Shown here: positions 16,954-53,367 of the stretch, one piece after another | Layout of the letters: each line of letters begins with the position of its first letter | Numbering within the stretch: position 1 is the stretch's first letter | Source: a virus | Taxonomy: Duplodnaviria; Caudoviricetes | Direction: 5' to 3' (one strand) | Virus record (IMG/VR): IMGVR_UViG_3300033153_010600 | Span: 1 to 61,344 of that record | Length of the DNA: 61,344 nt | The notes under the pieces: generated by a model | What the model was told of the DNA's origin: nothing | The model's input: only the letters and a program-made list of their open reading frames with translations | Database searches by the model: none | Translations under genes and position numbers: made by a program

Positions 16954-16970
16954 AACACTCTCCTTTCCCC

Positions 16971-25972: not shown

Positions 25973-26228
25973 ATGCTCCCTATTATAGCAGCCTTGACGG
26001 CCGAGCGTCCATGGATTCCCGAAGGGAACCTAACTCCTACCCCCGCAACGATTTAGGGTTTCCGGCCGAAATTGCCCGGGAGAAGGTATAATAGGCATCG
26101 TGGACGCAAGATGACGATCGCCGAACTGCCCGATGGCGCGGCCGGGCTGCGAAAGCAGCATGGGATAGAAGTGTGTTGCGAGGTCGCTCCCTGTCCACCG
26201 GCCGCGTTTTTTTTGTGGAGGCTAGAGC

Positions 26229-28198: not shown

Positions 28199-28251
28199 CA
28201 TTGGACCTGAGCAAGTACCGTATAATCCGCTAGGCAACAGGAGCCATCACA

Positions 28252-29361: not shown

Positions 29362-29379
29362 TCAACAGGAGCCATCACA

Positions 29380-30678: not shown

Positions 30679-30696
30679 TCAACAGGAGCCAATATA

Positions 30697-31512
30697 ATGT
30701 GCGAATTTCTATCCGGCATAGTTACGATGGAGCGGTACCCTCGTGTGCTCTGCGCCGACCTACGGCATCACGAGCGCACGGTGGAGGCGTTCGATCTCAA
30801 GCCGGAAACGTACCGGGAGTGGGAATGGGTCGAGGACGACGACGGAGCCAGCCTCACGGTGCGTGCCGCGCCCGGCGAGAATCCCAGCGTGCTGAAGTCG
30901 GCCATCCTGGCGAAATACCCGACGCGGGGAGACGCGCTGAGGACTTGCGTTGCTCAGGCGTTGGAAAAAAGCGGTTCGCTCTACCTTCGCGATTGCAAGC
31001 TGCCTGACGGTTTGACGCTGCCCGAGACGATAGATGGTTGGCTCGACCTTCATGGTTGCGTATTGCCTGCTAGTCTAACGCTACCCAAAACAGTTGGTGG
31101 CTGGCTCAACCTCGACGGCTGCATGCTACCCGCCGGAGTGACGTTACCCGAGTCGATCGGCGGCTGGCTTGACCTCAACAACTCCGTGCTACCCGACGGA
31201 CTAACGCTACCCAAGTTGGTAGGCGATTCGCTCGACCTTCGCGGCTGCAATCTACCTGCTAGTCTGACGCTACCCAAGACAGTTGGCAGTTCACTCTACC
31301 TTTGCGATTGCGAGCTACCCAACGGATTGACATTACCCAAGTTGGTAGGCGGTTCGCTCGACCTTCGCGGTTGCAAGCTACCTGCTGGCCTGACGCTACC
31401 CGAGTCGATCGGCGGTTCGCTCGACCTTCGTCGCTGCACGCTAGCTGAGGGTCTGATATTGGACCTGAGCAAATATAGTGCGGTCCGCGCTGCACGTTGG
31501 CGAAGGGTTTAA
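30697..31512 (+). CDS. LRR-like repeat protein, paralog 4
   Basis: Same architecture; shortest repeat tract. Confidence 0.9.
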   Translation: MCEFLSGIVTMERYPRVLCADLRHHERTVEAFDLKPETYREWEWVEDDDGASLTVRAAPGENPSVLKSAILAKYPTRGDALRTCVAQALEKSGSLYLRDCKLPDGLTLPETIDGWLDLHGCVLPASLTLPKTVGGWLNLDGCMLPAGVTLPESIGGWLDLNNSVLPDGLTLPKLVGDSLDLRGCNLPASLTLPKTVGSSLYLCDCELPNGLTLPKLVGGSLDLRGCKLPAGLTLPESIGGSLDLRRCTLAEGLILDLSKYSAVRAARWRRV

Positions 31513-33272: not shown

Positions 33273-33491
33273 GTGAGATACACGCTGTGGTTCCTGTCGT
33301 TGTTCATTGCCAGCATAGCTAGTTTCTGCGGCCTTATTTGCGCCTGGGCAGTAGCGGCCAACCTGGGCGGCTGGTGGTTGGTGGGAGCGTTGGCATGCCC
33401 GAACATTGCTATAATTGTCTTGTTGGGTCACATGCTGCAAGCCCGGCCGAATCGGCGTTGTCCAACGGGTTGCTCCCGTGACAACGGCTGA
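33273..33491 (+). CDS. Small membrane protein
   Basis: Two hydrophobic segments; stop lies inside the lone repeat. Confidence 0.5.
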   Translation: MRYTLWFLSLFIASIASFCGLICAWAVAANLGGWWLVGALACPNIAIIVLLGHMLQARPNRRCPTGCSRDNG

Positions 33492-33513
33492 AATTCGAGA
33501 AGTGTGTTGCGAG
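33478..33513 (+). repeat. Lone full CRISPR repeat
   Basis: GTGACAACGGCTGAAATTCGAGAAGTGTGTTGCGAG, 8 nt before ATG 33522. Confidence 0.9.
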
Positions 33514-33521
33514 CGAATGAG

Positions 33522-34529
33522 ATGACAACCGAATTGCTGACAACCGATCCGCCTCCCGGCCCGGGCGTTTACCCCGGCGTGCCTATGCGGGAGTACATGG
33601 CGTGGCCGTACATGAACGCCTCGACGCTCGTCCAGGCGTTCCCCGGCGGCGACCGCGAGATGATGTCGATGGCCCGGCTCAAGGCCGCGATCGACGGCCG
33701 GCTGCCCGGGCCGAGCGCCGCGATGTTGTTGGGGCAGGCGATCCACATGCGGCTTCTTGAGCCCGACAAGTTCGCGGCCACCTACGTCGTGGCCCAGCCT
33801 TGCGGGGCGACGATCCAGTCCAAGTCGTCCAAGAACTACGGCAAGCTGTGCGGGCGTATCGGCGATACGATGTACCGCGACGGTGAAGGGACGTGGTTCT
33901 GCTCGATGCACAATCCGGGCGGGCTGGAGCCGGAGGAAGACTTCCTGGACCCGGACACGGCCGCCGCAATCGAGGAGATCGTGGCCGTGATCGCCAAACG
34001 GAAGGTGGTCCAACTCCTCAAGGCGTTCGGTGGCTGCGAGGTGAGCTACGTCTGGGACCAGGCGGTGGAGTTCGCCGTTGGCGACGAGAGGCACGAGACG
34101 GTCGTGCGGATAAAGTGCCGCGTCGACAAGGACCTGACGGATTTGCCCCAACAGTACCCGAAGCTCCGGCCGCTGTTCGTGGACCTGAAGAAGGTGGGCC
34201 GCGACAGGTGGACCGACCGCAAAGTTCTCACGGCCGTCCACGACTACTGCTACGACATCAAGGCCGCGCTCTACCTAGACGGCGCAAGGGCCGTCGACGG
34301 CATCGAGCGGCAGTGGATATGGCTGGTCCTGGAGGACACGTATCCCTACCACACGAATGCGGTCGAGGCCCCGTCGGGAATGATCGAAACGGGTAGGGCG
34401 TGGTACAATAAGGTGCTGAGCGAATACGCGAGGTGCGTCTACCTTGCCGAGCAGGACGACTCGTTTCAATGGCCCGTGGCCTGCGAGAAGATACATTTCA
34501 GCCGTGACCCGTGGTGGGAGCCGCCGTGA
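33522..34529 (+). CDS. RecE/ExoVIII-like PD-(D/E)XK exonuclease
   Basis: AMLLGQAIHMRLLEP; IKCRVD..VDLK..YDIKAALYLDG; near recT. Confidence 0.85.
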   Translation: MTTELLTTDPPPGPGVYPGVPMREYMAWPYMNASTLVQAFPGGDREMMSMARLKAAIDGRLPGPSAAMLLGQAIHMRLLEPDKFAATYVVAQPCGATIQSKSSKNYGKLCGRIGDTMYRDGEGTWFCSMHNPGGLEPEEDFLDPDTAAAIEEIVAVIAKRKVVQLLKAFGGCEVSYVWDQAVEFAVGDERHETVVRIKCRVDKDLTDLPQQYPKLRPLFVDLKKVGRDRWTDRKVLTAVHDYCYDIKAALYLDGARAVDGIERQWIWLVLEDTYPYHTNAVEAPSGMIETGRAWYNKVLSEYARCVYLAEQDDSFQWPVACEKIHFSRDPWWEPP

Positions 34530-36009: not shown

Positions 36010-36218
36010 GATTTCAGTCGGGCAACGGAGGGGAGACCTTGTGCCTAATTGAATAGGCGGAACGCTTCGGATTGATGCAGTATAATAGGGAGAGTTGTAG
36101 ATGCGTCAACCCCGGTAGGCGTTTCTGCTGAGATCTGAGAAGTGTGTTGCGAGCGAGAGCGGCTGAATCGCGGATGGCCGATTTAGCAGGCGCTTACCAA
36201 GCCGATAGGAGAACCATT

Positions 36219-37092
36219 ATGAGCAGATCGCAATGGGTCCGCGTCAGTCGACGCGAGCCTTGTCCGGTCTGTCATCCACAAGCCGGACTGGTGCCTTGTA
36301 ACTGGTCCTGAAGGATGTCGTACGGCCGTGATATGCGCCCGCGTCGAGAGCCCCAAGCGCTGCGGCGAGGCTGGCTGGCTCCACAAGCTGCGGGATGACT
36401 GGCGGAATTCGCCCCCGCCCAGACTCGATCCGAAGCCGGAGCGGCCAGAGCCGAAGCGGGACTTCGCGGCGTTCGCGGAGCTGTGCACGACACAGTTGCA
36501 CCGAGACGCCCTGGGGGCGTTTGCCGGGAAGATGGGGCTAAGCGTCGGCTCGCTCGTGCGGCTGGGGCTCGGCTGGTCGCTGGAACATAAGGCGTTCACG
36601 TTCCCAATGCGGCGGGGCTCCGACGGCAAGGTGGTGGGCATCCGGCTGCGTCTACGCAGCGGCCGGAAGCTGGCGGTCAAAGGCGGGAGGGAGGGGCTGT
36701 TTGTGCCGTCGGACACGCCGCGGACTGGCGAGCTGTACCTGCCGGAGGGGCCGACGGACACGGCGGCGCTGCTGGACATCGGCTGCGAGGCGGTAGGGCG
36801 GCCGAGTTGCAACGGCGGCATCCAACACATACTGTCGTTCATCGCGCGGTCGAAGTACGCCGGCATCTGCGTTGTGGCGGACGCGGACGCGCCGGGCCAG
36901 CAGTGGGCGAAGGTGTTGGCGGAAAAGCTGCTACCGTACGCCCCCCGGGTGTGGATCGTCACGCCGCCTGACGGACACAAGGACGTGAGAGACTGGGTGC
37001 GGGGGGGAGCGACAAAACGCAACATTGACGGCGCAGCCGTGCCGCAAGAAACTCGCAACACACTTCTTAGCACAAATGCATTGTACCATTAG
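36219..37092 (+). CDS. Primase (Zn finger + TOPRIM), frameshifted near 36275
   Basis: AGGAG + ATG 36219 MSRSQWVRVSRREPCPVC continues in another frame as HKPDWC..ICAR; EGPTDTAAL, VADADAPG, HKDVRDW. Confidence 0.8.
37052..37088 (-). promoter_or_regulatory. Promoter + repeat-handle cassette, antisense to the primase 3' end
   Basis: TGGTACAAT then GAAGTGTGTTGCGAG (37066-37052). Confidence 0.72.
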
Positions 37093-37530: not shown

Positions 37531-37720
37531 CATACGTATGGGCGCGACGTATCGCGGTCGCGGCAAACGCAAGACGATTCGGACCGTGCTGTATATCGGC
37601 AGCTCTCCGCCGGAGCCGCCTCGCGTCATATACCGCGACTATCGCGGGCGCAGACGCGACACGTCCCTCACGTCGTTTGCGCGCTGGGCGGACGAGGAAG
37701 TTCTAGTGTACGTTGGATAA
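37517..37720 (+). CDS. Hypothetical protein
   Basis: GGAGG RBS; 67 aa. Confidence 0.55.
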   Translation: MRPHDIRMGATYRGRGKRKTIRTVLYIGSSPPEPPRVIYRDYRGRRRDTSLTSFARWADEEVLVYVG

Positions 37721-38320
37721 CCGATTTCAGCGGAGCCGGATTTCTCTGGCGAGTCGAATAGATAGACCGACCCTCCCTGGGCATCCCCGTACATGGTAGC
37801 CGTGATGACGCTCGTTGATTCTAGAAGACGCCCGGCTGTCTGCTTCGATCGGCCGGGACCGGTTCGGGCTTCTGCGACACAGGCTGGCAAGGCCCGTGTA
37901 GACCTACTGACGGCGTTCTGTTTGCCGGATGCCTTTTGGACCGGGACGCGGTCGGCGCGGTTGGATCGACTACCAGCTCGTTGCCCGGGAGAAGCCGCGA
38001 TGTGCGGCACAGAATACCTTTCGGCTGCATCGGCCCTCGGGCGGAGATATGCGCCCGCCGATTTGTATTCCGGCTCTTTTTGTGGGGTGAAAGTGCCGGC
38101 ACGACGTAACCCCTCTTCGAGAATCGGTCTCCGCCGAACTATTCGGCTGAATGTAGTATAATATGGGCTAGTGAACGTGTCAACCCCGGCAGGCGAGTCG
38201 GTCTCCGCCTTTGAGTCCCCCAATCGGCCGTAACCCCCGTGCGGGGGGCGAGCCGGGTTTTTCATGGCAACGGCTGAAATCCAAGAAGTGTATAGCGAGC
38301 AAAAGCGAAAGGACAATCGA

Positions 38321-38764: not shown

Positions 38765-38782
38765 GATATGGTATAATAGAAA

Positions 38783-39009
38783 TCAACGGGGTCCTCGCAG
38801 CCCCAATGAGAGGCGAGAAGTACCATGACACCCAAACGGCAATCACGGCGCATCCGTCCCCGATCATGTGCAAGCATGACGGGTGACGGTCGCCGGCTGA
38901 GCGGGTCCGGGCAACTCTCGCTGAAGGCTCCTGAAACAGGCCGGATATGCCGTGAGCCCGGCCGACACACTTCGCCTGGTGCGGTGATTCATCGCCGCAC
39001 CAGGTTTTT
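38783..39009 (+). ncRNA. Candidate tracrRNA
   Basis: TGGTATAAT 38769-77 upstream; CTCGCAG (38794-800) pairs with TTGCGAG; CGACACACTTC (38963-73) pairs with GAAGTGTGTTG; terminator follows. Confidence 0.8.
38975..39009 (+). terminator. Intrinsic terminator
   Basis: 13-bp stem CCTGGTGCGGTGA/TCGCCGCACCAGG with TTCA loop, then TTTTT. Confidence 0.88.
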
Positions 39010-39014
39010 ATTCT

Positions 39015-40676
39015 GGCTGAAATTCAAGAAGTGTGTTGCGAGGCACGGGGCGACCTGGACACGTCACACCTCGTGACGACGGCTGAAATCTGAGAAGTGT
39101 GTTGCGAGACCGAATCTCACCGTAGAGAAGAGCCTCTTTATAGGGTGGCGACAACGGCTGAAATCTGAGAAGTGTGTTGCGAGCGAGCAAACAAAAACGA
39201 AAGGGAAAGGAGAACGACATGGCGACTACAAGACAAGCGTTGTTGGAGCTGAAGAGGCTGGCGGCATCGGCCGCCGACAACCTGTACCGCCGCATCGAGC
39301 TGTCGGCGCAGGTGATGAGCGACCTGGACTGGATTGCCCGCGAGCACGGCGGTTCCGACTTGAAGGCCCAAGACACGTTGCAGGATCAGTTCTTCAGGGA
39401 CCTTGGCGGGTTCATCTCCCTCGGCAAGCTGATTGCGATGTTTCGCAACGTGCCGCAGGAGACGTGGGCCGAGCTGAAGTACGACGTGGCGGCCGTCGAA
39501 GTCGTCTACGACGACCAGGCCATCGAGAAGACGGAGAAGGGGACCAAGACCGCCTGGAAGCCCATTGCGGAGGAGAGGGGCGAAAAGATCGAACGCCTTC
39601 AGCGGCAGATGTCTCAGGTCAACGAGCTGGCCGATAAGCAGCGTTCGGAAATCGACGTGCTGCGGGCGAAGGTTGAAGAGCTGACCCGCGAGAACGAGCG
39701 TCTTCGGGGGCGCGTCGAGGAGCTTCAACGACTGCTCGATAGGCAGGTCGTGCAAGTGTGACGGGAAGTGTGTTGCGAGGGCGAGAACCGGCTTCAGCAC
39801 GTGGTCCCCGCAAGAGGTGACAACGGCTGAAAGCGGAGAAGTGTGTTGTGAGGACGGGGCGATTGCGGGTTGTGACGACGGCTGAAATTGGAGAAGTGTG
39901 TTGCGAGCCGAGTCTGTCCCCGAGGGTGACAACGGCTGAAAATCGAGAAGTGTGTTGCGAGACACGGCGCCCGCGCCCGTCTCGACGCCGCGAGCGACGT
40001 GACAATGGCTGAAAATCGAGAAGTGTGTTGCGAGCACCCGGCTCACGTCCACGCCGCCCGGGCCGGCCCGGTGACAATGGCTGAAATCCGAGAAGTGTGT
40101 TGTGAGAAGGTCACCCACCCTCCGAGTGGTGACAACGGCTGAAATCGGAGAAGTGTGTTGCGAGACCTCCCAGCGCCGCCCGCCGGGGTCGGACAGCTCG
40201 CCCGTGACAACGGCTGAAAATCGAGAAGTGTGTTGCGAGCCGAATAGGTCGGTAAGCTTGGTTGGGTGGTGCTCTCGTGACGATGGCTGAAATTCGAGAA
40301 GTGTGTTGCGAGCAGACCCCAATCGTGCAAGACCGCGACACTAAGGCACGTGACGACGGCTAAAATCTGAGAAGTGTGTTGCGAGCCGACGAAGAATCCC
40401 GCCGTCGCGAGGGAGATGGCCGTGACAACGGCTGAAATCTGAGAAGTGTGTTGCGAGCTGCCATCGTTACCCTTTCAGTCTGGTTATGTTACCCGTGACG
40501 ACGGCTGAAATCCGAGAAGTGTGTTGCGAGGCTTCGGAGTAGGCCAGCCGCCCGTCCAGGTCCGGGGTGATGACGGCTGAAAGTCGAGAAGTGTGTTGCG
40601 AGTGTCCATGATGCAATCGCAGGGGACGCTGCTGGAGGCGCTGACGACGGCTGAAATCGGAGAAGTGTGTAACGAG
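39015..40676 (+). CRISPR. CRISPR array B: 17 repeats (2 partial), 15 spacers, one embedded gene
   Basis: Consensus GTGACRAYGGCTGAAA....AGAAGTGTGTTGCGAG; degenerate last repeat 40641-76; spacers 18-39 nt. Confidence 0.95.
39219..39761 (+). CDS. Coiled-coil protein embedded in array B
   Basis: AAGGAG RBS, 180 aa, C-terminal LRAKVEELTRENERLRGRVEELQRLL; repeats on both sides. Confidence 0.8.
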   Translation: MATTRQALLELKRLAASAADNLYRRIELSAQVMSDLDWIAREHGGSDLKAQDTLQDQFFRDLGGFISLGKLIAMFRNVPQETWAELKYDVAAVEVVYDDQAIEKTEKGTKTAWKPIAEERGEKIERLQRQMSQVNELADKQRSEIDVLRAKVEELTRENERLRGRVEELQRLLDRQVVQV

Positions 40677-40701
40677 CAAACAAGCGAGGGAGCGAGGCAA
40701 A

Positions 40702-41985
40702 ATGGCCATCGGAATTCTAGAAGTCAAGCTGGGGCGTCCGATCCAAATGCCAACGAAGCGGTTCCACCAGCTACTCAGGCAGGCCCGCCGCGATTGCTGC
40801 AAAGCACGCAACGCGGCCATGCTCCACTGGTATGTCTGGCGGCGAGAGCACGCGGATTGGGAGCCGGGAAAACCATACGAGGCGCCGAAAGCCAAGATTA
40901 TGCGAACTCGCAAACCGGCAGGCGAAGGGAAGAAGCCACCGAAGGACTCGCCGATTGCCCCTCGCCTATTTCTTAGCCGCGAACTCTACCACGCGGCAAC
41001 CGCGGCGGCGCGGAACCTGTCGGCGTCGCTCGCCTCGTCGTGTGTACAGGAGGTGATCGCCCGACTCAAGGCCAACACCCCTTACGACCACGACGGCGAA
41101 GCGAGGTGGGTATGGCAAGCAATCCTTGCGTCCGAAGTCAATCTGCCCACCTGGCGCGGCGGGCGCATCCCGATGCCCAAGCGGTGCTCGTCGCTCGGAT
41201 ACGACGGGGCCGTCAGCCAACCGTCGGCTGACGTGGCGAGGGCCTGCAAAAGCGGGTGCGTTTTGAAGTTTCAACTGCTGTCTAGGCTGAGCGGCTATAG
41301 GACGCTATCGCCCATCGTCCGACTGGACGCCGCCGACCTGACGCGGGGCAACCGGCGATTGCTGAGGCGTCTGGCGTCTGGCGAGGTACGTCTGGCAGAC
41401 AGCCAGATCGTCGAGAAAAAGGGCAAGTGGTTCGCCCAATTCTGCTACGAGGTGGCGGCCAACGCGATCGGCCTGCCAACGGATCAGGTGTTGACGCTAC
41501 TGCCGGCGGAGCCGGACGACAAGTGGCCGTTCGCGCTCGCATGGACCAAGGAGGATGGGAATGGGCGGGTGTGGAAGATTGGCAACGGGCGGCCGCTCGT
41601 GGCCGAATACCGCCGGGTAGTAGCCCGGCGCCGGGCGATCCGCTACCGCTACCAGGACGGGACGGGCAGCGGGCACGGGCGCCAGCGGTGGTACAAGGCG
41701 ATTCGTCCGATGGCTCACGCCGTGCGGGACATGCAGAACCGCTTTGAGAAGCAGACGATTGCGGACATCATCAAGCTGGCGATTCGTGAGCGGTGCGGCA
41801 CGGTCCTGTACCGCGAGCCGACGATGCCGGTCCGCAACTATTCGTGGTTTGCGGCCAAGGACGTGCCGTTTGACTGGACGAGTTTCGAGGCGAGGCTGCG
41901 GTTCAAGACGGAGACGCGCGGCCTGGCCTACGAGAAGGCGCGTATCGGGATGAAGGAATGGCGTCCAAGAAAAATCGCAAACTGA
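40702..41985 (+). CDS. cas12f: Cas12f-like effector, predicted nuclease-dead and C-terminally truncated
   Basis: Collinear motifs resembling AsCas12f1 as I recall it: RLASGEVRLADSQIVEKKGKWF, GSGHGRQR, LAIRERCGTV, FEARLRFKTE; no GIDLG Asp, no RuvC-II Glu in register, no Zn finger/RuvC-III; between two arrays. Confidence 0.85.
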   Translation: MAIGILEVKLGRPIQMPTKRFHQLLRQARRDCCKARNAAMLHWYVWRREHADWEPGKPYEAPKAKIMRTRKPAGEGKKPPKDSPIAPRLFLSRELYHAATAAARNLSASLASSCVQEVIARLKANTPYDHDGEARWVWQAILASEVNLPTWRGGRIPMPKRCSSLGYDGAVSQPSADVARACKSGCVLKFQLLSRLSGYRTLSPIVRLDAADLTRGNRRLLRRLASGEVRLADSQIVEKKGKWFAQFCYEVAANAIGLPTDQVLTLLPAEPDDKWPFALAWTKEDGNGRVWKIGNGRPLVAEYRRVVARRRAIRYRYQDGTGSGHGRQRWYKAIRPMAHAVRDMQNRFEKQTIADIIKLAIRERCGTVLYREPTMPVRNYSWFAAKDVPFDWTSFEARLRFKTETRGLAYEKARIGMKEWRPRKIAN

Positions 41986-42278
41986 TCCTCGACTGCGAGA
42001 TATGCGGGGAGCCGGTAGTGCTGTCGCCGTCGCGGTACGTCGCGCTCGTGCGGGCTGGCGAGCGGCCGCGGTGCCGGAAGAACGGGTGCGAGAGGTTGTG
42101 CGGTGCGAAAAGTGCGGGGACCTCTCGCGGCACGCAAGTACTTGCCGGGGCGAGGGTTTCGCCGCTGGTAGTGCAATGGCCCCACACGAAGAGGGGCAAC
42201 AAGAATGGAGCCCTCGCAAAGCTGGCCGTAAAGCGAGACGGCGCATGGCGTTACGAGGGGTGCCGTGACGATGGCTGA
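41958..42278 (+). CDS. Possible small Zn-finger ORF overlapping the effector end
   Basis: CEICG...CRKNGC; runs through the probable leader, so it may be spurious. Confidence 0.35.
   Translation: MASKKNRKLILDCEICGEPVVLSPSRYVALVRAGERPRCRKNGCERLCGAKSAGTSRGTQVLAGARVSPLVVQWPHTKRGNKNGALAKLAVKRDGAWRYEGCRDDG
42085..42264 (+). promoter_or_regulatory. Probable leader of array C
   Basis: Inverted repeat GCGAGAGGT...ACCTCTCGC, second CCCTCGCAAA, and GTAA..TTACG just before the first repeat. Confidence 0.6.
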
Positions 42279-43946
42279 AATCGGAGAAGTGTGTTGCGAG
42301 ACACGAGTTCAGGCGATGTATATACTGGTATGAGCAAGTGACGATGGCTGAAATCGGAGAAGTGTGTTGCGAGGGTCCGACGCCTCCGCAATCTGCTTGG
42401 CGTAGCCGAGTGACAACGGCTGAAATCGGAGAAGTGTGTTGCGAGTGCGAGCGTCCTCCACCCCGAGGCTCGGGTACCTCCCGTGACGACGGCTGAAATC
42501 GGAGAAGTGTGTTGCGAGGCACGTCTCTGGCCTCGCCAATCGCCGCGTTCTTGCCGTGACGATGGCTGAAAATCGAGAAGTGTGTTGCGAGAGAACCGTC
42601 AAGTCCGGGTCGCCACCGTGCGACGACGGCTGAAAGCGGAGAAGTGTGTTGCGAGGCGAATACGAGAGACGTGGGCGCCGACCGTTGGCCGCGTGATGAC
42701 GGCTGAAAGCGGAGAAGTGTGTTGCGAGCTGGTAGCGGCAGGCGTGTATCGCCCGAAAGACGGGCGTGACGCGGCTGAAATCCAAGAAGTGTGTTGCGAG
42801 TAGAGTCTGCATAGGCTCAGCGTGTGACAACGGCTGAAAGTCAAGAAGTGTGTTGCGAGCCTGCCGATCGCCCATTGCGTCTCACTCCTTTCGGGTCGTG
42901 ACGATGGCTAAAATCCGAGAAGTGTGTTGCGAGAAGGTCGCCCACCCTCCGAGTGGTGACGACGGCTGAAATTCGAGAAGTGTGTTGCGAGAATGAAGAG
43001 GGAAGGCAGGGGTTACGATCCCATCCGGCGTGATGATGGCTGAAATCTGAGAAGTGTGTTGCGAGGGGTGGACGTGCCGGCGGCGACGATCACGGTGGAC
43101 GGCGTGACGATGGCTGAAATCGGAGAAGTGTGTTGCGAGTCGAGTAGCTGCCCGGGGGCTTGTAGGCACCGGCCCGCGTGACGATGGCTGAAAATCGAGA
43201 AGTGTGTTGCGAGAACCACGCAATCAGGGAGCTGGCCTGGGAGGGTGTCAAGTGACGACGGCTGAAATCGGAGAAGTGTGTTGCGAGGCCGAAAACCGAA
43301 GACGATCAGCGTGCGATAGCTGGTCGTGACGATGGCTGAAATCTGAGAAGTGTGTTGCGAGAGCACGTACGGGCTCACACCCGGCGGTTGACTCCAGCGG
43401 TGACGACGGCTGAAATCTGAGAAGTGTGTTGCGAGCCCTCCCGTGTGACGAGCCGGATGACCTATACGCAGGTGACGACGGCTGAAAATCAAGAAGTGTG
43501 TTGCGAGTCGCCAACCCGGGGATACGTTCAACGGACAGCTACGGACGTGACGATGGCTGAAATTCGAGAAGTGTGTTGCGAGTTGATCGAGAAGATGTTG
43601 GTGGCTGGCCAGCCGGCGTGTGACGATGGCTGAAATTCGAGAAGTGTGTTGCGAGTCGCGGGCCTTCAGGAGGGCAGTTAGCCGTGATTGCAGTGATGAC
43701 GGCTGAAATCTGAGAAGTGTGTTGCGAGGCGTCGATCAGCGCCAGCGGGGCCGGCCCGTGGAATGCGTGACGATGGCTGAAATCTGAGAAGTGTGTTGCG
43801 AGAAGCCAAGAGGCAATGCGAGCACGGCGAATGGGGGCGTGACAACGGCTGAAAGCGGAGAAGTGTGTTGCGAGGCTGCCCAATGTGCCCTTGTATTTGG
43901 CGAGAGAACGCGTGCCAACGGCTGAATCCAAGAAGTGTGTCGCGAG
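42265..43946 (+). CRISPR. CRISPR array C: 24 repeats, 23 spacers
   Basis: 36-nt repeats at ~73-nt period; degenerate last repeat 43912-46. Confidence 0.97.
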
Positions 43947-44460: not shown

Positions 44461-44516
44461 CTCGCAACATACTTCGCAGCACAACTGCATGGTACCATTC
44501 CTCGGCGGACGCAGGG
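44461..44516 (-). promoter_or_regulatory. Promoter + repeat-handle cassette
   Basis: CGTCCGCCGAGGAATGGTACCAT...GAAGTATGTTGCGAG on the minus strand. Confidence 0.65.
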
Positions 44517-44626
44517 AGGACGACTCGCAATTTGCCCTGTCGCAAGACGCCCCCCCCGGACAGTAGGGAAGGGTCGGCCGAGCCGACCCTTCCCCCCAAA
44601 AGTACCGTGTCGCCGGAGAAATAGCG

Positions 44627-45313
44627 ATGAAATGTTCGGCCGTAGTCCTATCCTTCAATCGCGTGCCCAACCTGGGCCGTATCGTCGAGAACCTCCGGCG
44701 GCACGACTGGATAGACGACATCGTGATATGGCACCAAGGCGAGCGGCTGCCGCCCGACTTCGAAGTGTGTTGCGAGCCTATCTGGTATGGCGTCCGCGAA
44801 ATCCACGCGCACAACCGCCTGCGCATGGGGCGATTCGACGCGATGGACCATTGCGCCCACGACGCGGTGCTCGTCCAGGACGACGACACGCTGCCCCGCA
44901 ACCTCGACGCGGCGTGGCAAGCCTGGCGCGAGGAGCAGTCCCGGATCGTTGCCCTGCTCGACCGTGGGCACCTGATGACGGACCGCTGGCGGCACTGGGG
45001 CGATTGCCATGAGGTGCTGCTCGGCTGGGGCGCAATCCTCGATCGGCGGTGGCGGAACGTGTTCAGGCTATGGGAGCACAGCTACGGCGTTGACGAGTTG
45101 CTAGAGCGGAAGGCCGACCGTATCTTCTCAATCCTCCAGCGGCGGCACCACACCGTCCTGCTGGCTGACTACGAGAAGCTACCCGGGGCGGACTCGAACG
45201 ACGCGGCGTGGAAGCAGCCGGACCATGACGCGACGACGAGAGAGGCGAGAGAGCGGTGCCTGAACGGCATATGTGGAATGGGATTGCAGCGCCACGAGTA
45301 CCGGATACGATAA
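44627..45313 (+). CDS. GT-A glycosyltransferase-like protein
   Basis: AVVLSFNR..DIVIW..VQDDD..LGWGA..ADRIF; in-frame handle at 44762-76. Confidence 0.75.
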   Translation: MKCSAVVLSFNRVPNLGRIVENLRRHDWIDDIVIWHQGERLPPDFEVCCEPIWYGVREIHAHNRLRMGRFDAMDHCAHDAVLVQDDDTLPRNLDAAWQAWREEQSRIVALLDRGHLMTDRWRHWGDCHEVLLGWGAILDRRWRNVFRLWEHSYGVDELLERKADRIFSILQRRHHTVLLADYEKLPGADSNDAAWKQPDHDATTREARERCLNGICGMGLQRHEYRIR

Positions 45314-46038
45314 TGCATTTGCCCCTGTACCCCGTGCCGAGCGACACTTGGCAGGACGAATACGAGGCGTGTTTGGCGGACCCGTACCTGCAAAAGAAAT
45401 ACGACCGGGAGAAGAGCATCCGGGAGCACGTCGACTACTTCGGCCGATACTGCCCGGAACTCGTGCCCGTAACCAAACCGCCCGGGCTGGTCGTCGACAT
45501 CGGCCCCGGCTTCGGCGTTGGGCTAGAGGTCGCCCGCCAGCTCGGATACGACACGATCGGCGTCGAGTCCCCGTCCGGCGATGGCGGGATGGGGGACGCC
45601 TACCACCGGCTGAGTCGCCTACTGCATGCGCGGCAGAAGCTAGCCGTAACCTACGTCGGCTGGCAGGAGTGGGTTGAGGCGGCCGAGATTCCCGAGGACA
45701 GCGTGTTTCTGTTCAACTCGCGCGGATCGTGGGAGCAGTGCTACGCGGAACTTCTGAGCGGCCCGCCTCACGACCGGCACCACGACTGCAAACAGCAGAC
45801 GTGGGATCAGATCGTGACGTGCGTTATCCGGTGGCGGCGGGCGTTCGCGTTCATGGCGTCCCGGCTCGTGCCTGGCGGGCTCGTGCTGATCCACGCCAAC
45901 GGGACCGGCTCGTCGACCAGCGACCGATGGTACAGCGCGGCGATAGCCGCCGCTGGGGAGTTTGCCGGACTCGAATTGGCGCTGAAGGAGGGCAATAAAT
46001 TGCACAAGTGGAAGAAACCACAACTGATGGAGACATAG
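45313..46038 (+). CDS. Class I SAM methyltransferase
   Basis: VVDIGPGFG; LVPGGLV. Confidence 0.75.
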   Translation: MHLPLYPVPSDTWQDEYEACLADPYLQKKYDREKSIREHVDYFGRYCPELVPVTKPPGLVVDIGPGFGVGLEVARQLGYDTIGVESPSGDGGMGDAYHRLSRLLHARQKLAVTYVGWQEWVEAAEIPEDSVFLFNSRGSWEQCYAELLSGPPHDRHHDCKQQTWDQIVTCVIRWRRAFAFMASRLVPGGLVLIHANGTGSSTSDRWYSAAIAAAGEFAGLELALKEGNKLHKWKKPQLMET

Positions 46039-46041
46039 CCG

Positions 46042-46626
46042 ATGCCAGGCTCGCAACACACTTCAACTTCCCATCATAGCGGAAAGACGGTTGCCGACAA
46101 GTCATCCGAGGGAAACGGCGAAGAAATCGACCGGCTGAAATCGGAAATCGCCGCACACAAGGAAAGCCTGAAAACATGCCGCAAGACGATTGCGTCGCTC
46201 GAACAGTCTCTGGAAACGGCCAACGCTGCGATTTGGCGAATCGTAGATGAGGTCTGGTCGGTGCGAACTTGCAAGGAAAACGTCGAGCTGGGCGAGACAG
46301 TCGAGGCATTGGTTGAAAACCACAAAGCGTATCTCGCGTTGATCAGGTCGAGGAGGCAAGAGGCTGCAAGAATATGCAAGGAAGCACGCGAGATTCAATC
46401 CGCGTTGCGGTTCGTCGGGCGTGCTGCCAGTTCAGGGTCGAGCGGTATGATGTTCGGATCAGCAGAGCACTTGGTACTCAGCATCGACGCAATCATGCGC
46501 CAGGCGTGTCGAGATATTGACGGTTTGATTGCCAGTTCGACTGGCGTCGTAAACGGCAGCCAAGATCGCTTGATGCGGGACGCGGTGGCAGAACTCCCGC
46601 AACACCACTCGCAACACACTTCATAA
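46042..46626 (+). CDS. Coiled-coil hypothetical protein
   Basis: Both ends contain antisense handle cassettes (46050-64, 46608-22; SQHTS). Confidence 0.6.
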   Translation: MPGSQHTSTSHHSGKTVADKSSEGNGEEIDRLKSEIAAHKESLKTCRKTIASLEQSLETANAAIWRIVDEVWSVRTCKENVELGETVEALVENHKAYLALIRSRRQEAARICKEAREIQSALRFVGRAASSGSSGMMFGSAEHLVLSIDAIMRQACRDIDGLIASSTGVVNGSQDRLMRDAVAELPQHHSQHTS

Positions 46627-46660
46627 CTGTATTATACCATGTCCTCAGCGGACGCAGCAA
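46608..46660 (-). promoter_or_regulatory. Promoter + repeat-handle cassette
   Basis: TTGCTG-18 bp-TATAAT, 8 nt, GAAGTGTGTTGCGAG. Confidence 0.8.
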
Positions 46661-46685
46661 GGAGTCTTGACATGAAGGACGCGGG

Positions 46686-47600
46686 ATGCGGGCAATAATA
46701 ATATACGACGTGGACGGTTTCGCGTACCACCGGCGGGCGGTAGCATTGAAAAAGTACGCGCCGCCCGACGCGGACGTGCGGCTTGTCAGGACGCCCGACT
46801 ACTGCGGCCCCGGCGACGCGGACGTAGTGGTGCTTTTGGACTATATCTGTCTGGGCATGGTTCAGGGCATGACGCCGGCCCGAGTGCCGCTCGTTTGCAC
46901 ATTTTCGGCGGACCACCGGCGGCGGGAGAAACAGTGGCGGCACACCTGCGAGCACGCCGACTGGGTGATAGCGTTGAGCCGGGAGCGGTACGAGGCGGAG
47001 CCGCGATTCGGCAACACCTGCTGCATTGCCAACGGCGTGGACCTCGACGATTTTGGTGCAGACGTACCGATCGAGGGCCGGCCAGACAAGGCGCTGTGGA
47101 TCGGCCAGGACGGGCGAGGGGACAACAAGGGGCTGATCTCCGTCCTGTCGCCGCTGCGCAAGCTGGCCGAGCGGAGCGGGTTCGCCTGCGACTTCCGGGC
47201 GGTGGGCCCTCGCGGATTTTCTACGGATCGCCTGCGGAGTTGGTATAATAGCGGGAGTTACATCGTGTGCGCTAGCCGCTCGGAGGCGACGGCAAACACG
47301 GTGATGGAGGCAGCCGCTTGCGGCTGCGTGCCGGTGAGCACGCCGGTTGGTACCCTGACGGATTGGGGCCAGGATGGCGAGAACTGCGTGCTCGTGAAGG
47401 ATCGGTCGCCGGAGGCGTTCCTGAAAGGACTGCAACGGGCGAAGGACGCACGCCTCCGGCTGGCCGCCGGCACGATGGAGGCCGTGGCGAGGTATGACTA
47501 CCGCCGCGTGGCGGAGCTGTACTGGGAGGATGTAATTCGGCCAATCGCCGAAGGGCGCCGGCCGGAACAATTCTGCTACCTCTCGCAACACACTTCCTGA
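46686..47600 (+). CDS. GT4-like glycosyltransferase
   Basis: IANGVD..CASRSEATANTVMEAAACGCVPVST. Confidence 0.85.
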   Translation: MRAIIIYDVDGFAYHRRAVALKKYAPPDADVRLVRTPDYCGPGDADVVVLLDYICLGMVQGMTPARVPLVCTFSADHRRREKQWRHTCEHADWVIALSRERYEAEPRFGNTCCIANGVDLDDFGADVPIEGRPDKALWIGQDGRGDNKGLISVLSPLRKLAERSGFACDFRAVGPRGFSTDRLRSWYNSGSYIVCASRSEATANTVMEAAACGCVPVSTPVGTLTDWGQDGENCVLVKDRSPEAFLKGLQRAKDARLRLAAGTMEAVARYDYRRVAELYWEDVIRPIAEGRRPEQFCYLSQHTS

Positions 47601-47739
47601 CTATATTATACTATATCCACCGAGGAAATTTTGTAGGAGAAAGAGCCGTGGAGCCAGAATTGAGTTCGGAAGCCTGAAACCACCTTAAGAACTCGGCCGT
47701 TAAGGCTGCTATAATGGGGAGTATGAAGTGTGTTGCGAG
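47582..47739. promoter_or_regulatory. Back-to-back promoter + handle cassettes
   Basis: Minus: TATAAT 47610-05, handle 47596-82. Plus: TGCTATAAT 47707-15, handle 47725-39. Confidence 0.8.
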
Positions 47740-49537: not shown

Positions 49538-49760
49538 GCCGCACCATCATCGCCGGCAACGGCCACAAGATCGGCTACGTCCATATTCCTTGCACCGGCG
49601 GGCGGAGCGTAATGCACGCACTGGGGCTTTTGCCGAGCCACGCAACCGCGGCGGAATTGAGGCGTCGGCACCCGGACCTGACGCATGTCGTTGCCATAGT
49701 CCGCTCCCCGTTTACGCTGCTCGTCTCGTGGTACAATCGGATCTCGCAACACACTTCAGC
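49534..49760 (+). pseudogene. Truncated sulfotransferase-family gene
   Basis: YVHIPCTGGRS..HATA..IVRSPFTLLVSWY, then runs directly into a handle cassette. Confidence 0.6.
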
Positions 49761-49802: not shown

Positions 49803-49882
49803 AGAAGTGTGTTGCGAGCGGGCGAGCTCGTCGAAGGTCACGCGGCGTGGCAACGGCTAAAATTCGAGAAATGTGTTGCGAG
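49803..49882 (+). CRISPR. One-spacer mini-array
   Basis: Handle 49803-17, 29-nt spacer, full degenerate repeat 49847-82; opposite-strand cassette at 49743-71. Confidence 0.7.
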
Positions 49883-49897: not shown

Positions 49898-50518
49898 ATG
49901 AGGGCGTGGGGCCAACTACAAGGACGTTATCCGTGGCCGGATCGGCAGCCAAGCGACCAAGGGGTCAAGCGGCCGTTTGGCTGGCTGCACAACAAGACGC
50001 AAGCGGCCCTGCGCCAGCATCTTGGCGAACACACGCGATACGTCGTGGAGTTGGGGACGTGGCTTGGCAGGTCGGCCCGGTTCATTTTGTCGTGCGCGCC
50101 GAACGCGAAAATAGTCTGCGTCGATCACTGGCAGGGCTCGCCGGAGTTGGGCGAGGACCACGGGCACCTGTTTGGCGAACCGGTGTATCAGGCGTTTCTA
50201 CACCACAACTGGGACCTGAGAGAGCGGATCGTGGCCGTACAGGACCGAACCGAGGCCGGCATAACCGAGGTCGTGATGGCCGGCCTGACGCCTGACCTGG
50301 TGTACATCGACGCCGCGCACGACGCGGAGAGCGTGCGGCTAGACGTATACGCATCAGCGATGGCGTTTCCCGACGCGATATTGGTCGGGGACGACTGGGA
50401 TGTGGACGCCGATCACTACGGCGTGGCGTCCGGCGTAGCGGATGGGTTGAGCCAGGCGTTCGCCAGCTACGACCTACGCAACAACGGCAAAGCGTGGTGG
50501 GCGAAAAGAGTGCCATGA
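49898..50518 (+). CDS. Class I SAM methyltransferase (Methyltransf_24-like)
   Basis: VVELGTWLGRS..CVDHWQGS..LVYIDAAH..GDDW. Confidence 0.85.
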   Translation: MRAWGQLQGRYPWPDRQPSDQGVKRPFGWLHNKTQAALRQHLGEHTRYVVELGTWLGRSARFILSCAPNAKIVCVDHWQGSPELGEDHGHLFGEPVYQAFLHHNWDLRERIVAVQDRTEAGITEVVMAGLTPDLVYIDAAHDAESVRLDVYASAMAFPDAILVGDDWDVDADHYGVASGVADGLSQAFASYDLRNNGKAWWAKRVP

Positions 50519-53187: not shown

Positions 53188-53367
53188 CGGGTGGCCACCG
53201 CGTGCCGATGCCAAAGTACGACCGGCACATGGACTTTGCGGCCCCGCAATCGCGGTAGCTCGCCGTAGACTTCCTCGGGGAGCAGGAGCGGCTCGACTAC
53301 GTGTCCCGGCAGAAGCCGAAGACGAGCCGCTTTATGGTATAATGCAGTCATAGAAGTGTGTTGCGAG
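53142..53367. repeat. Perfect 37-bp inverted repeat of the promoter + handle cassette
   Basis: TTTATGGTATAATGCAGTCATAGAAGTGTGTTGCGAG at 53331-67 (+) and 53178-42 (-). Confidence 0.9.

Follow-up and report, generated by a model that had tools for sequence, protein, structure and literature searches.

The window, the whole 61,344-nt stretch analysed here, is a 61-kb virus record rated 67% complete. The element it represents is a tailed phage, with genes for a portal, terminase, tail fibre and helicase. Positions 38770-43946 hold a CRISPR module in which a conserved tracrRNA is accompanied by three arrays and by a Cas12f homologue of 427 aa. The element order proposed in the first-pass annotation was confirmed, running from the tracrRNA candidate (38786-39012) through a mini-array, a gene (39219-39761), array B and the effector gene (40702-41985) to array C, as was the placement of array A 13 kb away (25678-25972, minus strand). 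The features of the module and its outlying arrays are as follows.

38770-38778, plus: extended -10 box TGGTATAAT of the tracrRNA promoter; the tracrRNA profile match (nhmmer) begins 8 nt downstream, at 38786
38786-39012, plus: tracrRNA, a conserved structured RNA of ~225 nt
38963-38973, plus: anti-repeat, pairing with the first 11 nt of the repeat 3' half, one G-U
38974-39012, plus: intrinsic terminator of the tracrRNA, 14-bp stem and T run
39028-39183, plus: mini-array of a half repeat, 2 spacers and 2 full repeats; the last repeat enters the 5' leader of the next gene
39219-39761, plus: accessory gene, 180 aa, with an uncharacterised N-terminal domain and a C-terminal coiled coil
39765-40676, plus: array B, half repeat and 13 spacers; the last, degenerate repeat is 25 nt upstream of the effector ATG
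40702-41985, plus: effector, 427 aa, Cas12f-like; by alignment, Leu267 for the RuvC-I Asp and Arg371 for the RuvC-II Glu; ends before the Zn-finger/RuvC-III part
41958-42278, plus: zinc-ribbon ORF in the overlapping -1 frame, encoding a 106-aa C4 zinc-ribbon protein; stop codon inside the first repeat of array C
42265-43946, plus: array C, 24 repeats and 23 spacers; the last repeat is upstream of a DUF1064 gene
25678-26011 including the promoter, minus: array A, -35/-10 at 26011-25982, half repeat at about the transcript start, 4 spacers
49804-49882, plus: mini-array of a half repeat, one 28-nt spacer and a full repeat, followed by the 5' leader of a gene at ~49900-50518

The effector and its partner proteins

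The 427-aa protein is a Cas12f homologue. In a single-sequence search of PDB chains, the best five matched at E 1.8e-9 to 3.1e-8, and a profile of its family retrieved 12 chains at E<=1, all of Cas12f/Cas14 type, with 7wju as the best (E 7.2e-16). Chains 8j12, 8j3r, 7wju and 8dzj, whose PDB titles give only OrfB/IS605, are presumably the Acidibacillus sulfuroxidans enzyme; the likeness to these type V-F proteins is that of a homologous miniature effector. An ESM Atlas model of the effector (pTM 0.63) aligned with Cas12f/TnpB clusters at TM 0.71-0.76. Close relatives number 48, and the family extends to 664 clusters at E<=0.001.

The first-pass annotation had read the catalytic motifs as altered and had proposed alignment to Cas12f as a check, which gave clear similarity and no intact D-E-D triad. 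In HMMER alignments, VLTLLPA (residues 263-269) lies opposite Cas12f IMGIDLG, and CGTVLYREP (residues 365-373) opposite CGTIQMEDL. Leu267 aligns to the variable position of IMGI(D/A)LG, which is D in chain 8j12 and A in 7wju. Across 49 close and 149 distant members, the RuvC-I Asp column is variable with no Asp majority, while the RuvC-II Glu column is Arg in 49/49 close and 84/149 distant members and Glu in 5/198. As judged from these alignments, the effector has lost its DNA-cutting residues, and its description as nuclease-dead holds insofar as the RuvC-I and RuvC-II acids are absent family-wide.

The effector ORF ends before the Zn-finger/RuvC-III part, and this is not a one-off mutation, since close relatives end at the same place; 47 of the 48 (40-77% identity) are 376-479 aa long and one is a 255-aa fragment. 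The truncation therefore stands, but it is probably not a simple one, as a C4 zinc-ribbon ORF overlaps the effector gene in 26/26 loci examined (64 clusters). The ~270-nt "leader" (41986-42264) had been mistaken for non-coding sequence and is occupied by this conserved ORF, which overlaps the effector stop. Since the overlapping -1 frame still specifies a C4 zinc-ribbon protein, the effector is probably two-part rather than simply truncated. The C-terminal half of the zinc-ribbon protein matches the in-frame C-terminal tails of 8/198 family proteins (E 2.5e-8 to 2.6e-4), all of them distant effector relatives; the zinc-ribbon protein does not match the Cas12f Zn finger significantly. The ORF has its own ATG in 17/18 loci and a GTG in one, and a slippery heptamer, A_AAA_AA(A/C), occurs in the effector frame within the overlap in 3/18 loci but is absent from the window and 15/18, which favours separate initiation.

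These observations bear on whether the module might still be a nuclease, with the effector and the zinc-ribbon protein rebuilding an active site from other residues to cut DNA or process RNA, the zinc ribbon serving as a second subunit or being fused by occasional -1 frameshifting. The ORF is located where the Cas12f Zn-finger/RuvC-III would be, distant members carry its C-terminal half as a fusion, the heptamer is present at three loci, and the acidic columns E145, D233, D355 and E372 (the last adjoining the lost Glu) are conserved across the 198 proteins. Rearranged catalytic sites have also been described for TnpB, in the portion of PMC10691335 available. We nevertheless regard a retained nuclease as very improbable, given the unconserved RuvC-I column, the conserved Arg in place of the RuvC-II Glu, the prevalence of independent start codons over the heptamer, and the invariant columns of the zinc-ribbon protein, which are four Cys, Pro and Arg, with E45 as the sole near-invariant acid.

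The gene first described as embedded in the array is present and, like the ORF in the "leader", is a conserved protein gene of the module. It encodes a coiled-coil protein; copies 47-60% identical adjoin the effector gene or the tracrRNA at no fewer than 12 loci, and the protein collection contains 87 clusters of it.

The tracrRNA and the arrays

The tracrRNA is real and conserved, with a covarying anti-repeat. Homologues were found by nhmmer in 19/38 records, always upstream of the effector and on the same strand, and a 14-sequence alignment contains 21 consensus pairs, 7 with compensatory changes. The anti-repeat covaries with the repeat in L005, L014, L023 and further loci; no Rfam family matched the tracrRNA. 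Through the 11-nt anti-repeat, the tracrRNA would pair with every repeat in its 3' half.

The repeat is 36 nt with a period of ~73 nt, and the spacers, ~37 nt, are positioned 3' of the handle. A scripted count agreed with the ~42 spacers noted initially, giving 42 in four arrays (2 in the mini-array at 39028-39183, 13 in array B, 23 in array C and 4 in array A) plus 1 at 49804-49882. The last repeat of every array enters a gene's leader; that of array A (minus strand) lies upstream of a Dam-type methyltransferase gene. Array spacers turn over between near-identical relatives: L022 and L023, which carry Sak4-like, helicase and primase genes, are 99% identical across 2.25 kb, yet their first two spacers are different.

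Consistent with the initial impression that no cas1/cas2 is recognisable, Cas1, Cas2 and Cas4 profiles gave no match at E<=1 in the six frames of the 61-kb record; the part missing from this 67%-complete record could carry cas1/cas2 or a partner. No protospacers were found within the window, in 38 related records, in 50,697 phage records or in 72,556 plasmids, and exact scans with three spacer prefixes returned none. A pattern scan of 185,579 species genomes gave 4 candidates, 0/4 of which encode a relative.

Repeat handles across the phage genome

The 3' 15-mer of the repeat, GAAGTGTGTTGCGAG, occurs in 72 copies in the whole 61-kb window, counted with up to 1 mismatch, against 0.01 expected from shuffles. 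Arrays account for 45 of these, and 27 lie outside. The dispersed units are listed below.

2534-2592, minus: two half repeats in tandem; sense, upstream of ORF 2161-2472
6868-6882, plus: half repeat; sense, ~42 nt upstream of an ATG
13668-13682, plus: half repeat after a TACCAT -10-like box; faces against a minus-strand gene block
17013-17027, plus: half repeat after promoter 16971-16999; antisense, final codons of ORF 17009-17296 (minus)
18577-18591, plus: half repeat after a -10-like box; antisense to a minus-strand block
23186-23200, minus: half repeat; sense, immediately upstream of the start of ORF 22714-23184
24127-24141, minus: half repeat; sense, within a minus block
26168-26182, plus: half repeat; sense, 46 nt upstream of the ATG of ORF 26229-27089
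33478-33513, plus: solitary full repeat before ORF 33504-34529 (PDDEXK-like DUF3799)
36139-36153, plus: half repeat; sense, upstream of a Toprim-like ORF
37052-37066, minus: half repeat after promoter 37108-37080; antisense, final codons of ORF 36328-37092 (plus)
38264-38299, plus: solitary full repeat, degenerate, with 2 mismatches within its 15-mer; 21 nt upstream of the ATG at 38321
44461-44475, minus: half repeat after a TACCAT -10-like box; antisense within a plus-strand block
44762-44776, plus: half repeat within the coding sequence of a glycosyltransferase ORF; sense, without a promoter
46050-46064, minus: half repeat after promoter 46100-46073; antisense, 12 nt beyond the stop of ORF 45256-46038
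46608-46622, minus: half repeat after TGGTATAAT; antisense, final codons of ORF 46042-46626
47582-47596, minus: half repeat after TAGTATAAT; antisense, final codons of ORF 46686-47600
47725-47739, plus: half repeat after TGCTATAAT; sense, divergent pair with 47582-47596
49743-49757, minus: half repeat after promoter 49794-49766; antisense
52365-52379, plus: half repeat, 1 mismatch; sense, within ORF 52150-53187
53142-53156, minus: half repeat after TGGTATAAT; antisense, close to the end of ORF 52150-53187
53353-53367, plus: half repeat after an identical TGGTATAAT box; sense, upstream of ORF 53425-54432
56605-56619, minus: half repeat after a TACAAT box; antisense, final codons of ORF 55612-56628
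57871-57906, plus: solitary full repeat, its end 3 nt from the stop of the convergent ORF 57909-58967 (minus)
59206-59220, minus: half repeat; sense, ~26 nt upstream of an ATG, minus-strand block

Despite replacement of the repeat 5' half, 20/27 dispersed copies are perfect 15-mers, and the stretch they keep consists of the tracrRNA-pairing segment and 4 further nt. By our ORF map, 13 copies precede ORFs in sense orientation, 12 run antisense, and the other 2 fall within coding sequences. Eleven of the 12 antisense copies are 8-13 nt downstream of a TATAAT- or TACAAT-like box, and 6/28 promoter-like sites from a promoter scan end 8-13 nt upstream of a dispersed copy.

This distribution raises the question of whether tracrRNA and effector bind handle-bearing phage transcripts to control the phage's own expression. 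Substrates would be mRNAs, through their 5' leaders, and the antisense RNAs that promoters drive at gene ends. Binding could cover a ribosome-binding site that occupies the "guide" position, set where mRNAs end, or act at gene ends as a roadblock or insulator. The excess of 27 dispersed handles over the 0.01 expected window-wide, the conserved pairing stretch, the placement of the copies and their promoters, and the entry of each array's last repeat into a gene leader all speak for such regulation, as does the repeat that likewise precedes the effector gene in related loci. Although compatible with the best explanation given below, own-genome regulation seems unlikely to us. Each such "guide" perfectly matches only its own template DNA, where the handle occupies the PAM position; no seed match of at least 14 nt occurs elsewhere in the window for 77 guides (longest 13 nt, once), and no partial matches of dispersed-handle guides to promoters were found. 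Dense dispersal is seen in this phage only, the relatives (short contigs) having one to three extra copies each and L023 none in the 10 kb upstream except in the effector leader. Regulation of this kind would also leave the 42 fast-changing spacers unexplained.

Because Cas12f acts as a dimer, an inactive subunit might disturb it. The dead protein and the promoter-driven solitary repeats might accordingly poison a host's nuclease-active type V-F system, the repeats acting as RNA anti-CRISPRs that titrate host Cas12f or tracrRNA and the subunit as a dominant negative. Promoter-bearing solitary repeat units in phages are described as counter-defence in the text available from PMC10651486, 10.1101/2024.10.29.618823 and 10.1101/2023.03.03.530964. 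We consider an anti-CRISPR decoy quite improbable here, because the phage brings its own tracrRNA, which covaries with its own repeat in each lineage, along with two conserved partner proteins and long, turning-over arrays, none of which a decoy would need.

Relation to known systems and proposed function

With type V-F Cas12f, the module shares a separate tracrRNA with the anti-repeat near its 3' end, 36-nt repeats, and ~37-nt spacers 3' of the handle. It differs in the apparent loss of the RuvC-I Asp and RuvC-II Glu, an ORF that stops short of the Zn-finger/RuvC-III region, the presence of two additional conserved genes, and a phage-borne location with handles dispersed genome-wide; nor was any cas1, cas2 or cas4 found in the 67%-complete record.

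The dCas12f-sigmaE systems (PMC13472631, as far as its text is available; chain 9n9c, titled "nuclease-deactivated Cas12f") also have a dead Cas12f that is comparably short (365 aa, aligned as far as residue 361), and the modelled phage effector appears similar in fold to ~365-aa Bacteroidota clusters. The phage family profile is nearer 7wju (7.2e-16) than 9n9c (7.5e-8), and the phage guides are a separate tracrRNA and arrays, not a small number of fused single guides. Sigma-factor region 2 was not found in the window, whose sole region-4-like HTH is in an ORF adjoining the terminase gene.

TldR proteins, some of them prophage-borne, rely on a single omega-RNA-like guide whose target is fixed, whereas the phage module has CRISPR arrays (42 spacers) and a separate tracrRNA. 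No Cas12m chain is among the 12 PDB chains found at E<=1 with the family profile. Type V-M Cas12m needs no tracrRNA and is a different branch from the phage effector. By the accessible portions of PMC10442227 and PMC11013384, it is likewise a compact Cas12 and confers protection by binding dsDNA and silencing it, without cutting, and it keeps a non-canonical RuvC site. TldR shares nuclease-dead, RNA-guided repression by TnpB/Cas12 relatives and, per its abstract, derives directly from TnpB.

The contrast first drawn with dead relatives that use one or a few fixed guides is less sharp than proposed, as bacteria are already reported to have Cas12f that is nuclease-dead, truncated at its C terminus and adjacent to CRISPR arrays (PMC13472631, PMC10691335, both in excerpt). 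According to these excerpts, the bacterial proteins still adjoin CRISPR arrays and are proposed to repress transcription; they come from bacterial genomes (a Chitinophagaceae MAG), with guides that match an efflux-pump promoter. The phage family is set beside them by description only, and the zinc-ribbon ORF, coiled-coil gene, spacer turnover and dispersed handles are absent from the description in those excerpts.

Repeat-like units outside arrays, some with promoters, are reported from phage genomes or cas loci as Racr (PMC10651486) and regulatory mini-arrays (10.1101/2023.03.03.530964). Relative to what the available text of these reports covers, the present phage has ~27 copies in one 61-kb genome that also encodes an effector, located in mRNA leaders and antisense at gene ends. 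VIPR (10.64898/2026.10.15.759431) resembles the module in phage-encoded, RNA-guided silencing without cutting, mobile-element conflicts and solo guide RNAs, but its machinery is unrelated (GGYNN repeat arrays, Vipr/Vap1 proteins, non-contiguous base recognition), and the available part of its text mentions neither TnpB nor Cas12. We found no description of a phage-borne three-gene version with dispersed handles in the literature searched.

We therefore favour, with a probability of roughly 0.68, a phage CRISPR module derived from Cas12f in which DNA cutting would have been lost and the guide machinery kept, making it an RNA-guided binder or silencer of matching DNA. The Cas12f homology, the family-wide loss of RuvC acids, the early ORF end, and the real tracrRNA with large arrays make this the best reading. 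Its parts would be the ~225-nt tracrRNA, the coiled-coil accessory protein, the 427-aa effector, the overlapping-frame zinc-ribbon protein and four arrays with 42 spacers. We infer a ribonucleoprotein in which the protein(s) bind the tracrRNA:repeat duplex and hold the following spacer as guide; the complex would then bind matching DNA and block transcription or replication as a roadblock, without cleavage. The ~27 other phage transcripts that the 15-nt handle starts or precedes may be loaded likewise. Because spacers differ between near-identical phages, the guides would be renewed, and the most probable targets would be rival mobile elements or genes of the host, not fixed promoters. Together, a handle on many phage transcripts, a dead effector and changing guides suggest that this phage uses its RNA guides to silence rather than to cut.

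A truncated Cas12f homolog and its partner proteins

The 427-aa effector encoded at 40702-41985 (+) proved to be a Cas12f homolog, as a first-pass annotation of the sequence had proposed. A family profile built from 48 members gave 12 matches to Protein Data Bank (PDB) chains, every one Cas12f/Cas14 and the best at E 7.2e-16 over profile positions 139-395. The effector sequence by itself retrieved five Cas12f chains (E 1.8e-9 to 3.1e-8). Pfam returned no match to the effector, and the NCBIfam TnpB model scored 16.6 bits, the cut-off being 100. The ESM Atlas contains a model of exactly this protein (pTM 0.63), which aligned to Cas12f/TnpB clusters with TM scores of 0.71-0.76 and to clusters of ~365-aa Bacteroidota proteins with scores of 0.67-0.71 by query. 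At E<=0.001, an exhaustive profile search recovered 664 clusters, of which 151 also passed E<=1e-30; among the 150 clusters listed, homologs were mostly 360-540 aa long.

In the profile alignments, the motif is IMGIDLG in one PDB chain and IMGIALG in another (7wju); this difference identifies the RuvC-I aspartate position, which falls on Leu267 of VLTLLPA in the effector. The RuvC-II glutamate of CGTIQMEDL lies opposite Arg371 of CGTVLYREP. Both pairings had been put forward in the first-pass annotation and recurred in the HMM-profile alignments to PDB chains. We counted residues by column in 198 family proteins, 49 of them close and 149 distant: the RuvC-I column is variable, with no majority residue, and the RuvC-II column is Arg in 49/49 close and 84/149 distant members and Glu in 5/198. 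By alignment, the ORF stops ahead of motif III and an intact RuvC Asp-Glu-Asp triad is absent. The effector ends ~20 residues past the last aligned strand; solved Cas12f chains run on to 422-446 residues, and the part missing by comparison we take to be the zinc finger and motif III. The effector ORF itself contains no C-terminal zinc finger (TNB domain). This truncation is a family trait rather than a one-off mutation, as 48 relatives (40-77% identical; 47 of 376-479 aa and one 255-aa fragment) share the C-terminus RIGMxEWRP... The alignment thus points to a nuclease-dead effector. Acidic columns E145, D233, D355, and E372 are conserved across the 198 family proteins; with the RuvC-I and RuvC-II positions lost, we regard a residual nuclease as very unlikely.

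Directly behind the effector, what had been read as a leader before array C is a conserved gene. The ORF at 41958-42278, in the -1 frame, overlaps the final 28 nt of the effector gene, terminates inside the first repeat of array C, and encodes a 106-aa protein with a CxxC...CxxxxC motif (C4 zinc ribbon). An equivalent small ORF follows the effector in 26/26 loci examined, including relatives at 27-41% identity, and its product accounts for 64 clusters in the protein collection. Across 17 aligned sequences, the invariant columns are four cysteines, one proline, and one arginine. The small-protein profile matches the in-frame C-terminal tails of 8/198 family proteins (E 2.5e-8 to 2.6e-4), always via the C-terminal half of the small protein (profile positions ~45-105). 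On these sequence matches, the small protein probably represents, wholly or partly, a C-terminus detached from the ancestral effector, with a zinc ribbon added in front. Its comparison with the Cas12f zinc finger, PDB chains, and Pfam families (zinc-ribbon model included) produced no significant match, and the ESM Atlas offered no lead.

A programmed -1 frameshift as the general join between effector and zinc ribbon was not supported: a slippery heptamer occurs in just 3/18 loci, so separate but coupled translation is the simpler reading. The small ORF starts with its own ATG in 17/18 loci and with GTG in one. In 14/18 loci this ATG lies within the effector Glu-Trp codons, which may partly account for the conservation of that effector motif.

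The gene embedded in the array region (39219-39761), also noticed in the first pass, is likewise a conserved accessory gene, with 47-60% identical copies adjoining the effector or tracrRNA in at least 12 loci. Its product (87 clusters in the protein collection) combines a well-conserved N-terminal part of ~100 aa, belonging to no known family, with a C-terminal coiled coil; attempts at family assignment returned only coiled-coil look-alikes, geminin and bZIP among them.

tracrRNA, arrays, and spacers

The locus resides in a tailed-phage genome, a virus record of 61,344 nt rated 67% complete, with PHROGs matches for portal, large terminase, tail-fiber-like, and helicase genes. Pfam matches in the window include Toprim, DUF1064, DUF3799, a Dam-type methyltransferase, and several glycosyltransferases. 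Many, though not all, type V-F loci carry cas1 and cas2 (cas4). Here, six-frame profile searches of the 61-kb record (67% complete) with a threshold of E<=1 gave no match to cas1, cas2, or cas4, in line with the earlier impression that cas1/cas2 were not recognizable. The effector family looks viral: 78% of the Atlas cluster members that have a record are viral, the related locus L002 is, like the window, a virus record, and two others (L022 and L023) lie with Sak4-like, helicase, and primase genes. A weak scan with only two peptide patterns, covering 185,579 species at one genome apiece, produced four candidate stretches, none encoding a relative. Elsewhere in the genome, four tandem paralogous ORFs (27131-28198, 28252-29361, 29380-30678, and 30697-31512, within 27131-31512) are each built on a 63-nt (21-aa) period repeated about ten times, their ~1.1-1.3-kb units being 79-86% alike.

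RNA-coding features of the locus and its arrays
38770-38778: extended -10 box TGGTATAAT, preceding the ~225-nt tracrRNA
39028-39183: mini-array, 2 spacers (by script)
39765-40676: array B, 13 spacers (by script)
42265-43946: array C, 23 spacers (by script)
25678-25972, minus strand: array A, 4 spacers (by script)
49804-49882: single-spacer unit, 1 spacer beyond the 42 of the four arrays

In its 3' part, the tracrRNA carries an 11-nt segment that pairs with the first 11 nt of the 3' half of the repeat (one G-U), followed by a 14-bp terminator with a T run. The same layout recurs in related loci. Judged by eye from tracrRNA tails set beside the repeats, the anti-repeat is altered in step with the locus's own repeat in L005, L014, and L023, and also in L008, L006/L033, L011, and L017. 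With a four-sequence profile, nhmmer located the tracrRNA in 19/38 records, always on the effector strand and upstream of the effector. The four-sequence alignment supports 38 pairs, 9 with compensatory changes; an alignment of 14 sequences contains long invariant blocks and 21 consensus pairs, 7 with compensatory changes, and the most varied pairs form the helix immediately 5' of the anti-repeat. Searching viral contigs with a block of the tracrRNA returned L002 as the sole match. At gathering thresholds, Rfam detected no family anywhere in the window, the tracrRNA included, and a tRNA search of the window found none. Directly upstream of the module, a ~730-nt gap without a predicted gene (37531-38263) holds the region's best sigma-70-like site (minus strand, TTGACA-17-TATACT, 38183-38155) and may be a further non-coding RNA.

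The 36-nt repeat is genuine: its 3' 15-mer, the tracrRNA-pairing handle, occurs 72 times in the window with <=1 mismatch, compared with 0.01 expected from shuffles. The four arrays hold 42 spacers, matching the first-pass estimate of ~42. Most are 36-39 nt long and ten are 18-32 nt; a 22-nt spacer common to arrays B and C is the only one that occurs a second time in the window. The terminal repeat of each array extends into a gene leader, that of the coiled-coil gene, the effector, the DUF1064 gene, or the Dam methylase. Along a 2.25-kb alignment that takes in the effector, small ORF, first repeat, and first spacer, L022 and L023 share 99% identity. Their first two spacers are not the same, and arrays are therefore renewed in nature.

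Some arrays among the relatives depart from this pattern. At the far end of the L022 array (3330-3540), shortened repeats interleave with 12-25-nt "spacers" and one unit is duplicated. The distant relative L034 (29% identity; positions 1-2700) lacks a regular array; the 11-nt repeat end occurs 16 times at irregular spacings of 22-120 nt, flanking the effector gene on both sides, and looks like an array cut down to handles. One array-B spacer (40165-40203) resembles a spacer in the array of L019 (2428-2455; 21/23 nt), and the two may be inherited or acquired from related targets.

Searches for protospacers gave none for the 43 spacers in the window plus 37 loci, none for 262 guide-like 30-mers drawn from every locus and compared with every locus, none for array C among plasmids, and chance-level matches only (E 0.1-0.5) for arrays B and C in a phage collection. 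Exact scans of viral contigs for two spacer prefixes, and of genome and viral collections for the shared 22-nt spacer, were negative. Within the window, the longest seed match of any of 77 guides was 13 nt, which occurred once. In the search of the window plus 37 loci, the sole non-array match, 18 internal nt of an array-A spacer at L012:8564-8581, was set aside as too short. Since the spacers turn over and none has a match in the phage's own genome, competing mobile elements or host genes are the most likely targets.

We put at roughly two in three the probability that the effector, its partner proteins, the tracrRNA, and crRNAs would assemble into one DNA-binding complex that silences matching DNA without cutting it. 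The first-pass interpretation of an RNA-guided, CRISPRi-like binder is partly supported; its locus, arrays, lost RuvC acids, and truncation stand, and its "leader" does not.

Handles dispersed through the phage genome

Outside the arrays, the 15-mer handle occurs in 27 copies with <=1 mismatch (20 perfect), with five further copies at two mismatches. These dispersed copies keep the tracrRNA-pairing stretch and CGAG, the 5' half of the repeat being replaced. On a heuristic, GC3-based ORF map, 13 copies lie in sense orientation upstream of ORFs, 12 are antisense, and 2 fall within coding sequences. Where an ATG is visible near a sense copy, the motif ends 0 to ~60 nt ahead of it, often with a purine-rich leader between. 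Divergent handle pairs occupy intergenic regions at 47582/47725, 53142/53353, 49743/49804, and 25958/26168.

A promoter-like -10 box precedes 11/12 antisense copies: five lie 8-9 nt past TATAAT or TATGAT, often with TG, and six lie 13 nt past a TACAAT-like box (TACAAT, TACCAT, or TGCAAT). In four of those six, a -35 hexamer resembling TTGCTA or TTGCCG stands 17 nt upstream. For seven of these 11 copies, the opposed gene's stop codon is no more than ~45 nt away. Because antisense handles overlie gene ends, three plus-strand ORFs have identical last few residues. Overall, ~15 of the 27 copies sit behind -10-like boxes. An independent consensus scan of the full window gave 28 promoter-like calls where 15.8 were expected, and 6/28 end 8-13 nt upstream of a dispersed copy.

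Among relatives, a repeat always lies ahead of the effector gene, with a few more upstream-of-gene copies (L012, L014); 10 kb of L023 contains no further copies, and the relatives' contigs are short. Dense handle dispersal is shown for the window phage only.

Several further features adjoin the handles. Sequence just past the handle at 2534 (2500-2533) recurs at 26714-26732 and 44540-44567, as one 19-nt exact match and one 26/28 match, a short conserved element. The promoter and handle unit at 13668 fires into a 1.1-kb stretch without a predicted ORF (12984-14110) in the minus-strand structural block. Glycosyltransferase/methyltransferase-like genes cluster at 44627-47600 and 53425-55615, and a radical-SAM-like ORF lies at 15535-16998; many antisense handle units sit at the ends of exactly these genes, which may serve DNA or surface modification.

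It is possible, though we would not expect it, that the phage wrote the crRNA handle into its own transcriptome, gaining RNA-guided gene control beside renewable anti-rival spacers. Promoters would fire straight into the 15-nt handle, mRNA leaders would carry it ~25-60 nt ahead of start codons, and 11 promoter-driven antisense RNAs would begin with it at gene 3' ends. The dead Cas12f-tracrRNA complex, a split effector with its zinc-ribbon tail supplied from the overlapping frame, would then take up phage mRNAs and antisense RNAs to serve as guides. The outcome could include, at gene ends, roadblocks or insulators and, at leaders, the effector's own among them, feedback on translation, alongside conventional renewable spacers aimed at rivals. 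The sole perfect DNA match of such dispersed-handle "guides" is their own template. That this use of the phage's own RNAs is the main function of the system appears unlikely, with spacers renewed and dense dispersal shown for the window phage only, and it could coexist with silencing of matching DNA.

Relation to known systems

A 2022 survey in Cell reportedly covers virus-encoded CRISPR-Cas systems. To our knowledge, most natural nuclease-dead RNA-guided proteins either rely on a fixed guide, or on a few of them (TldR, dCas12f-sigmaE), or act as effectors of bacterial immunity (Cas12m). The window system resembles type V-F Cas12f in effector homology, a tracrRNA with an anti-repeat, and CRISPR arrays with unique spacers, but differs in having no intact RuvC triad and no adaptation genes found. 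The effector ORF holds no zinc finger, and a C4 zinc-ribbon protein is encoded by the overlapping ORF. Unlike dCas12f-sigmaE, which has fused single guides and no CRISPR association, it pairs a separate, self-terminated tracrRNA with arrays and has no adjacent ECF sigma gene; Sigma70_r2 (sigma-factor region 2) had no match in the window, and the sole r4_2-like (region-4-like) HTH match (10000-10104) lies in an ORF beside the terminase gene, 30 kb from the module. With dCas12f-sigmaE, TldR, and Cas12m, the window system has the principle in common but not the components.

PMC10691335 describes Cas12f branches that lost activity along with motif III and whose array then shrank to a half repeat beside the tracrRNA. 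The window also has a half repeat, 16 nt past the tracrRNA terminator, yet its large arrays persist. A bacterial cluster of dead, C-terminally truncated Cas12f adjoining CRISPR arrays, with guides to an efflux promoter, is mentioned in PMC13472631; the phage family may correspond to that cluster. VIPR (10.64898/2026.10.15.759431) is virus-borne silencing with solo guides and machinery unrelated to that of the window. No paper in the literature searched, supplements aside, describes a phage-borne dead Cas12f with large arrays, the three-gene module, a zinc-ribbon ORF overlapping its effector, or half repeats scattered outside arrays.

Racr (PMC10651486) and cr-like RNAs (10.1101/2023.03.03.530964) are solitary repeats of known kinds, and the window likewise has solitary repeat-like units with promoters in a phage genome (27 copies). 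A reading of the units as an anti-CRISPR decoy draws on this likeness; beside the locus's own tracrRNA, partner proteins, and renewed arrays, we consider it very unlikely.

The window thus presents a virus-borne, very small (427 + 106 aa), apparently dead Cas12f with long, changing arrays, a well-defined tracrRNA, and two partner proteins. The overlapping zinc-ribbon ORF would record a Cas12f C-terminus that was split off yet kept. The dispersed handles raise the question of whether a CRISPR effector can take ordinary mRNAs and antisense RNAs from its own genome as guides, or can serve to punctuate operons. If silencing holds true, the system would offer a compact natural CRISPRi scaffold, and phages themselves would be using adaptive-looking guide repertoires for silencing.
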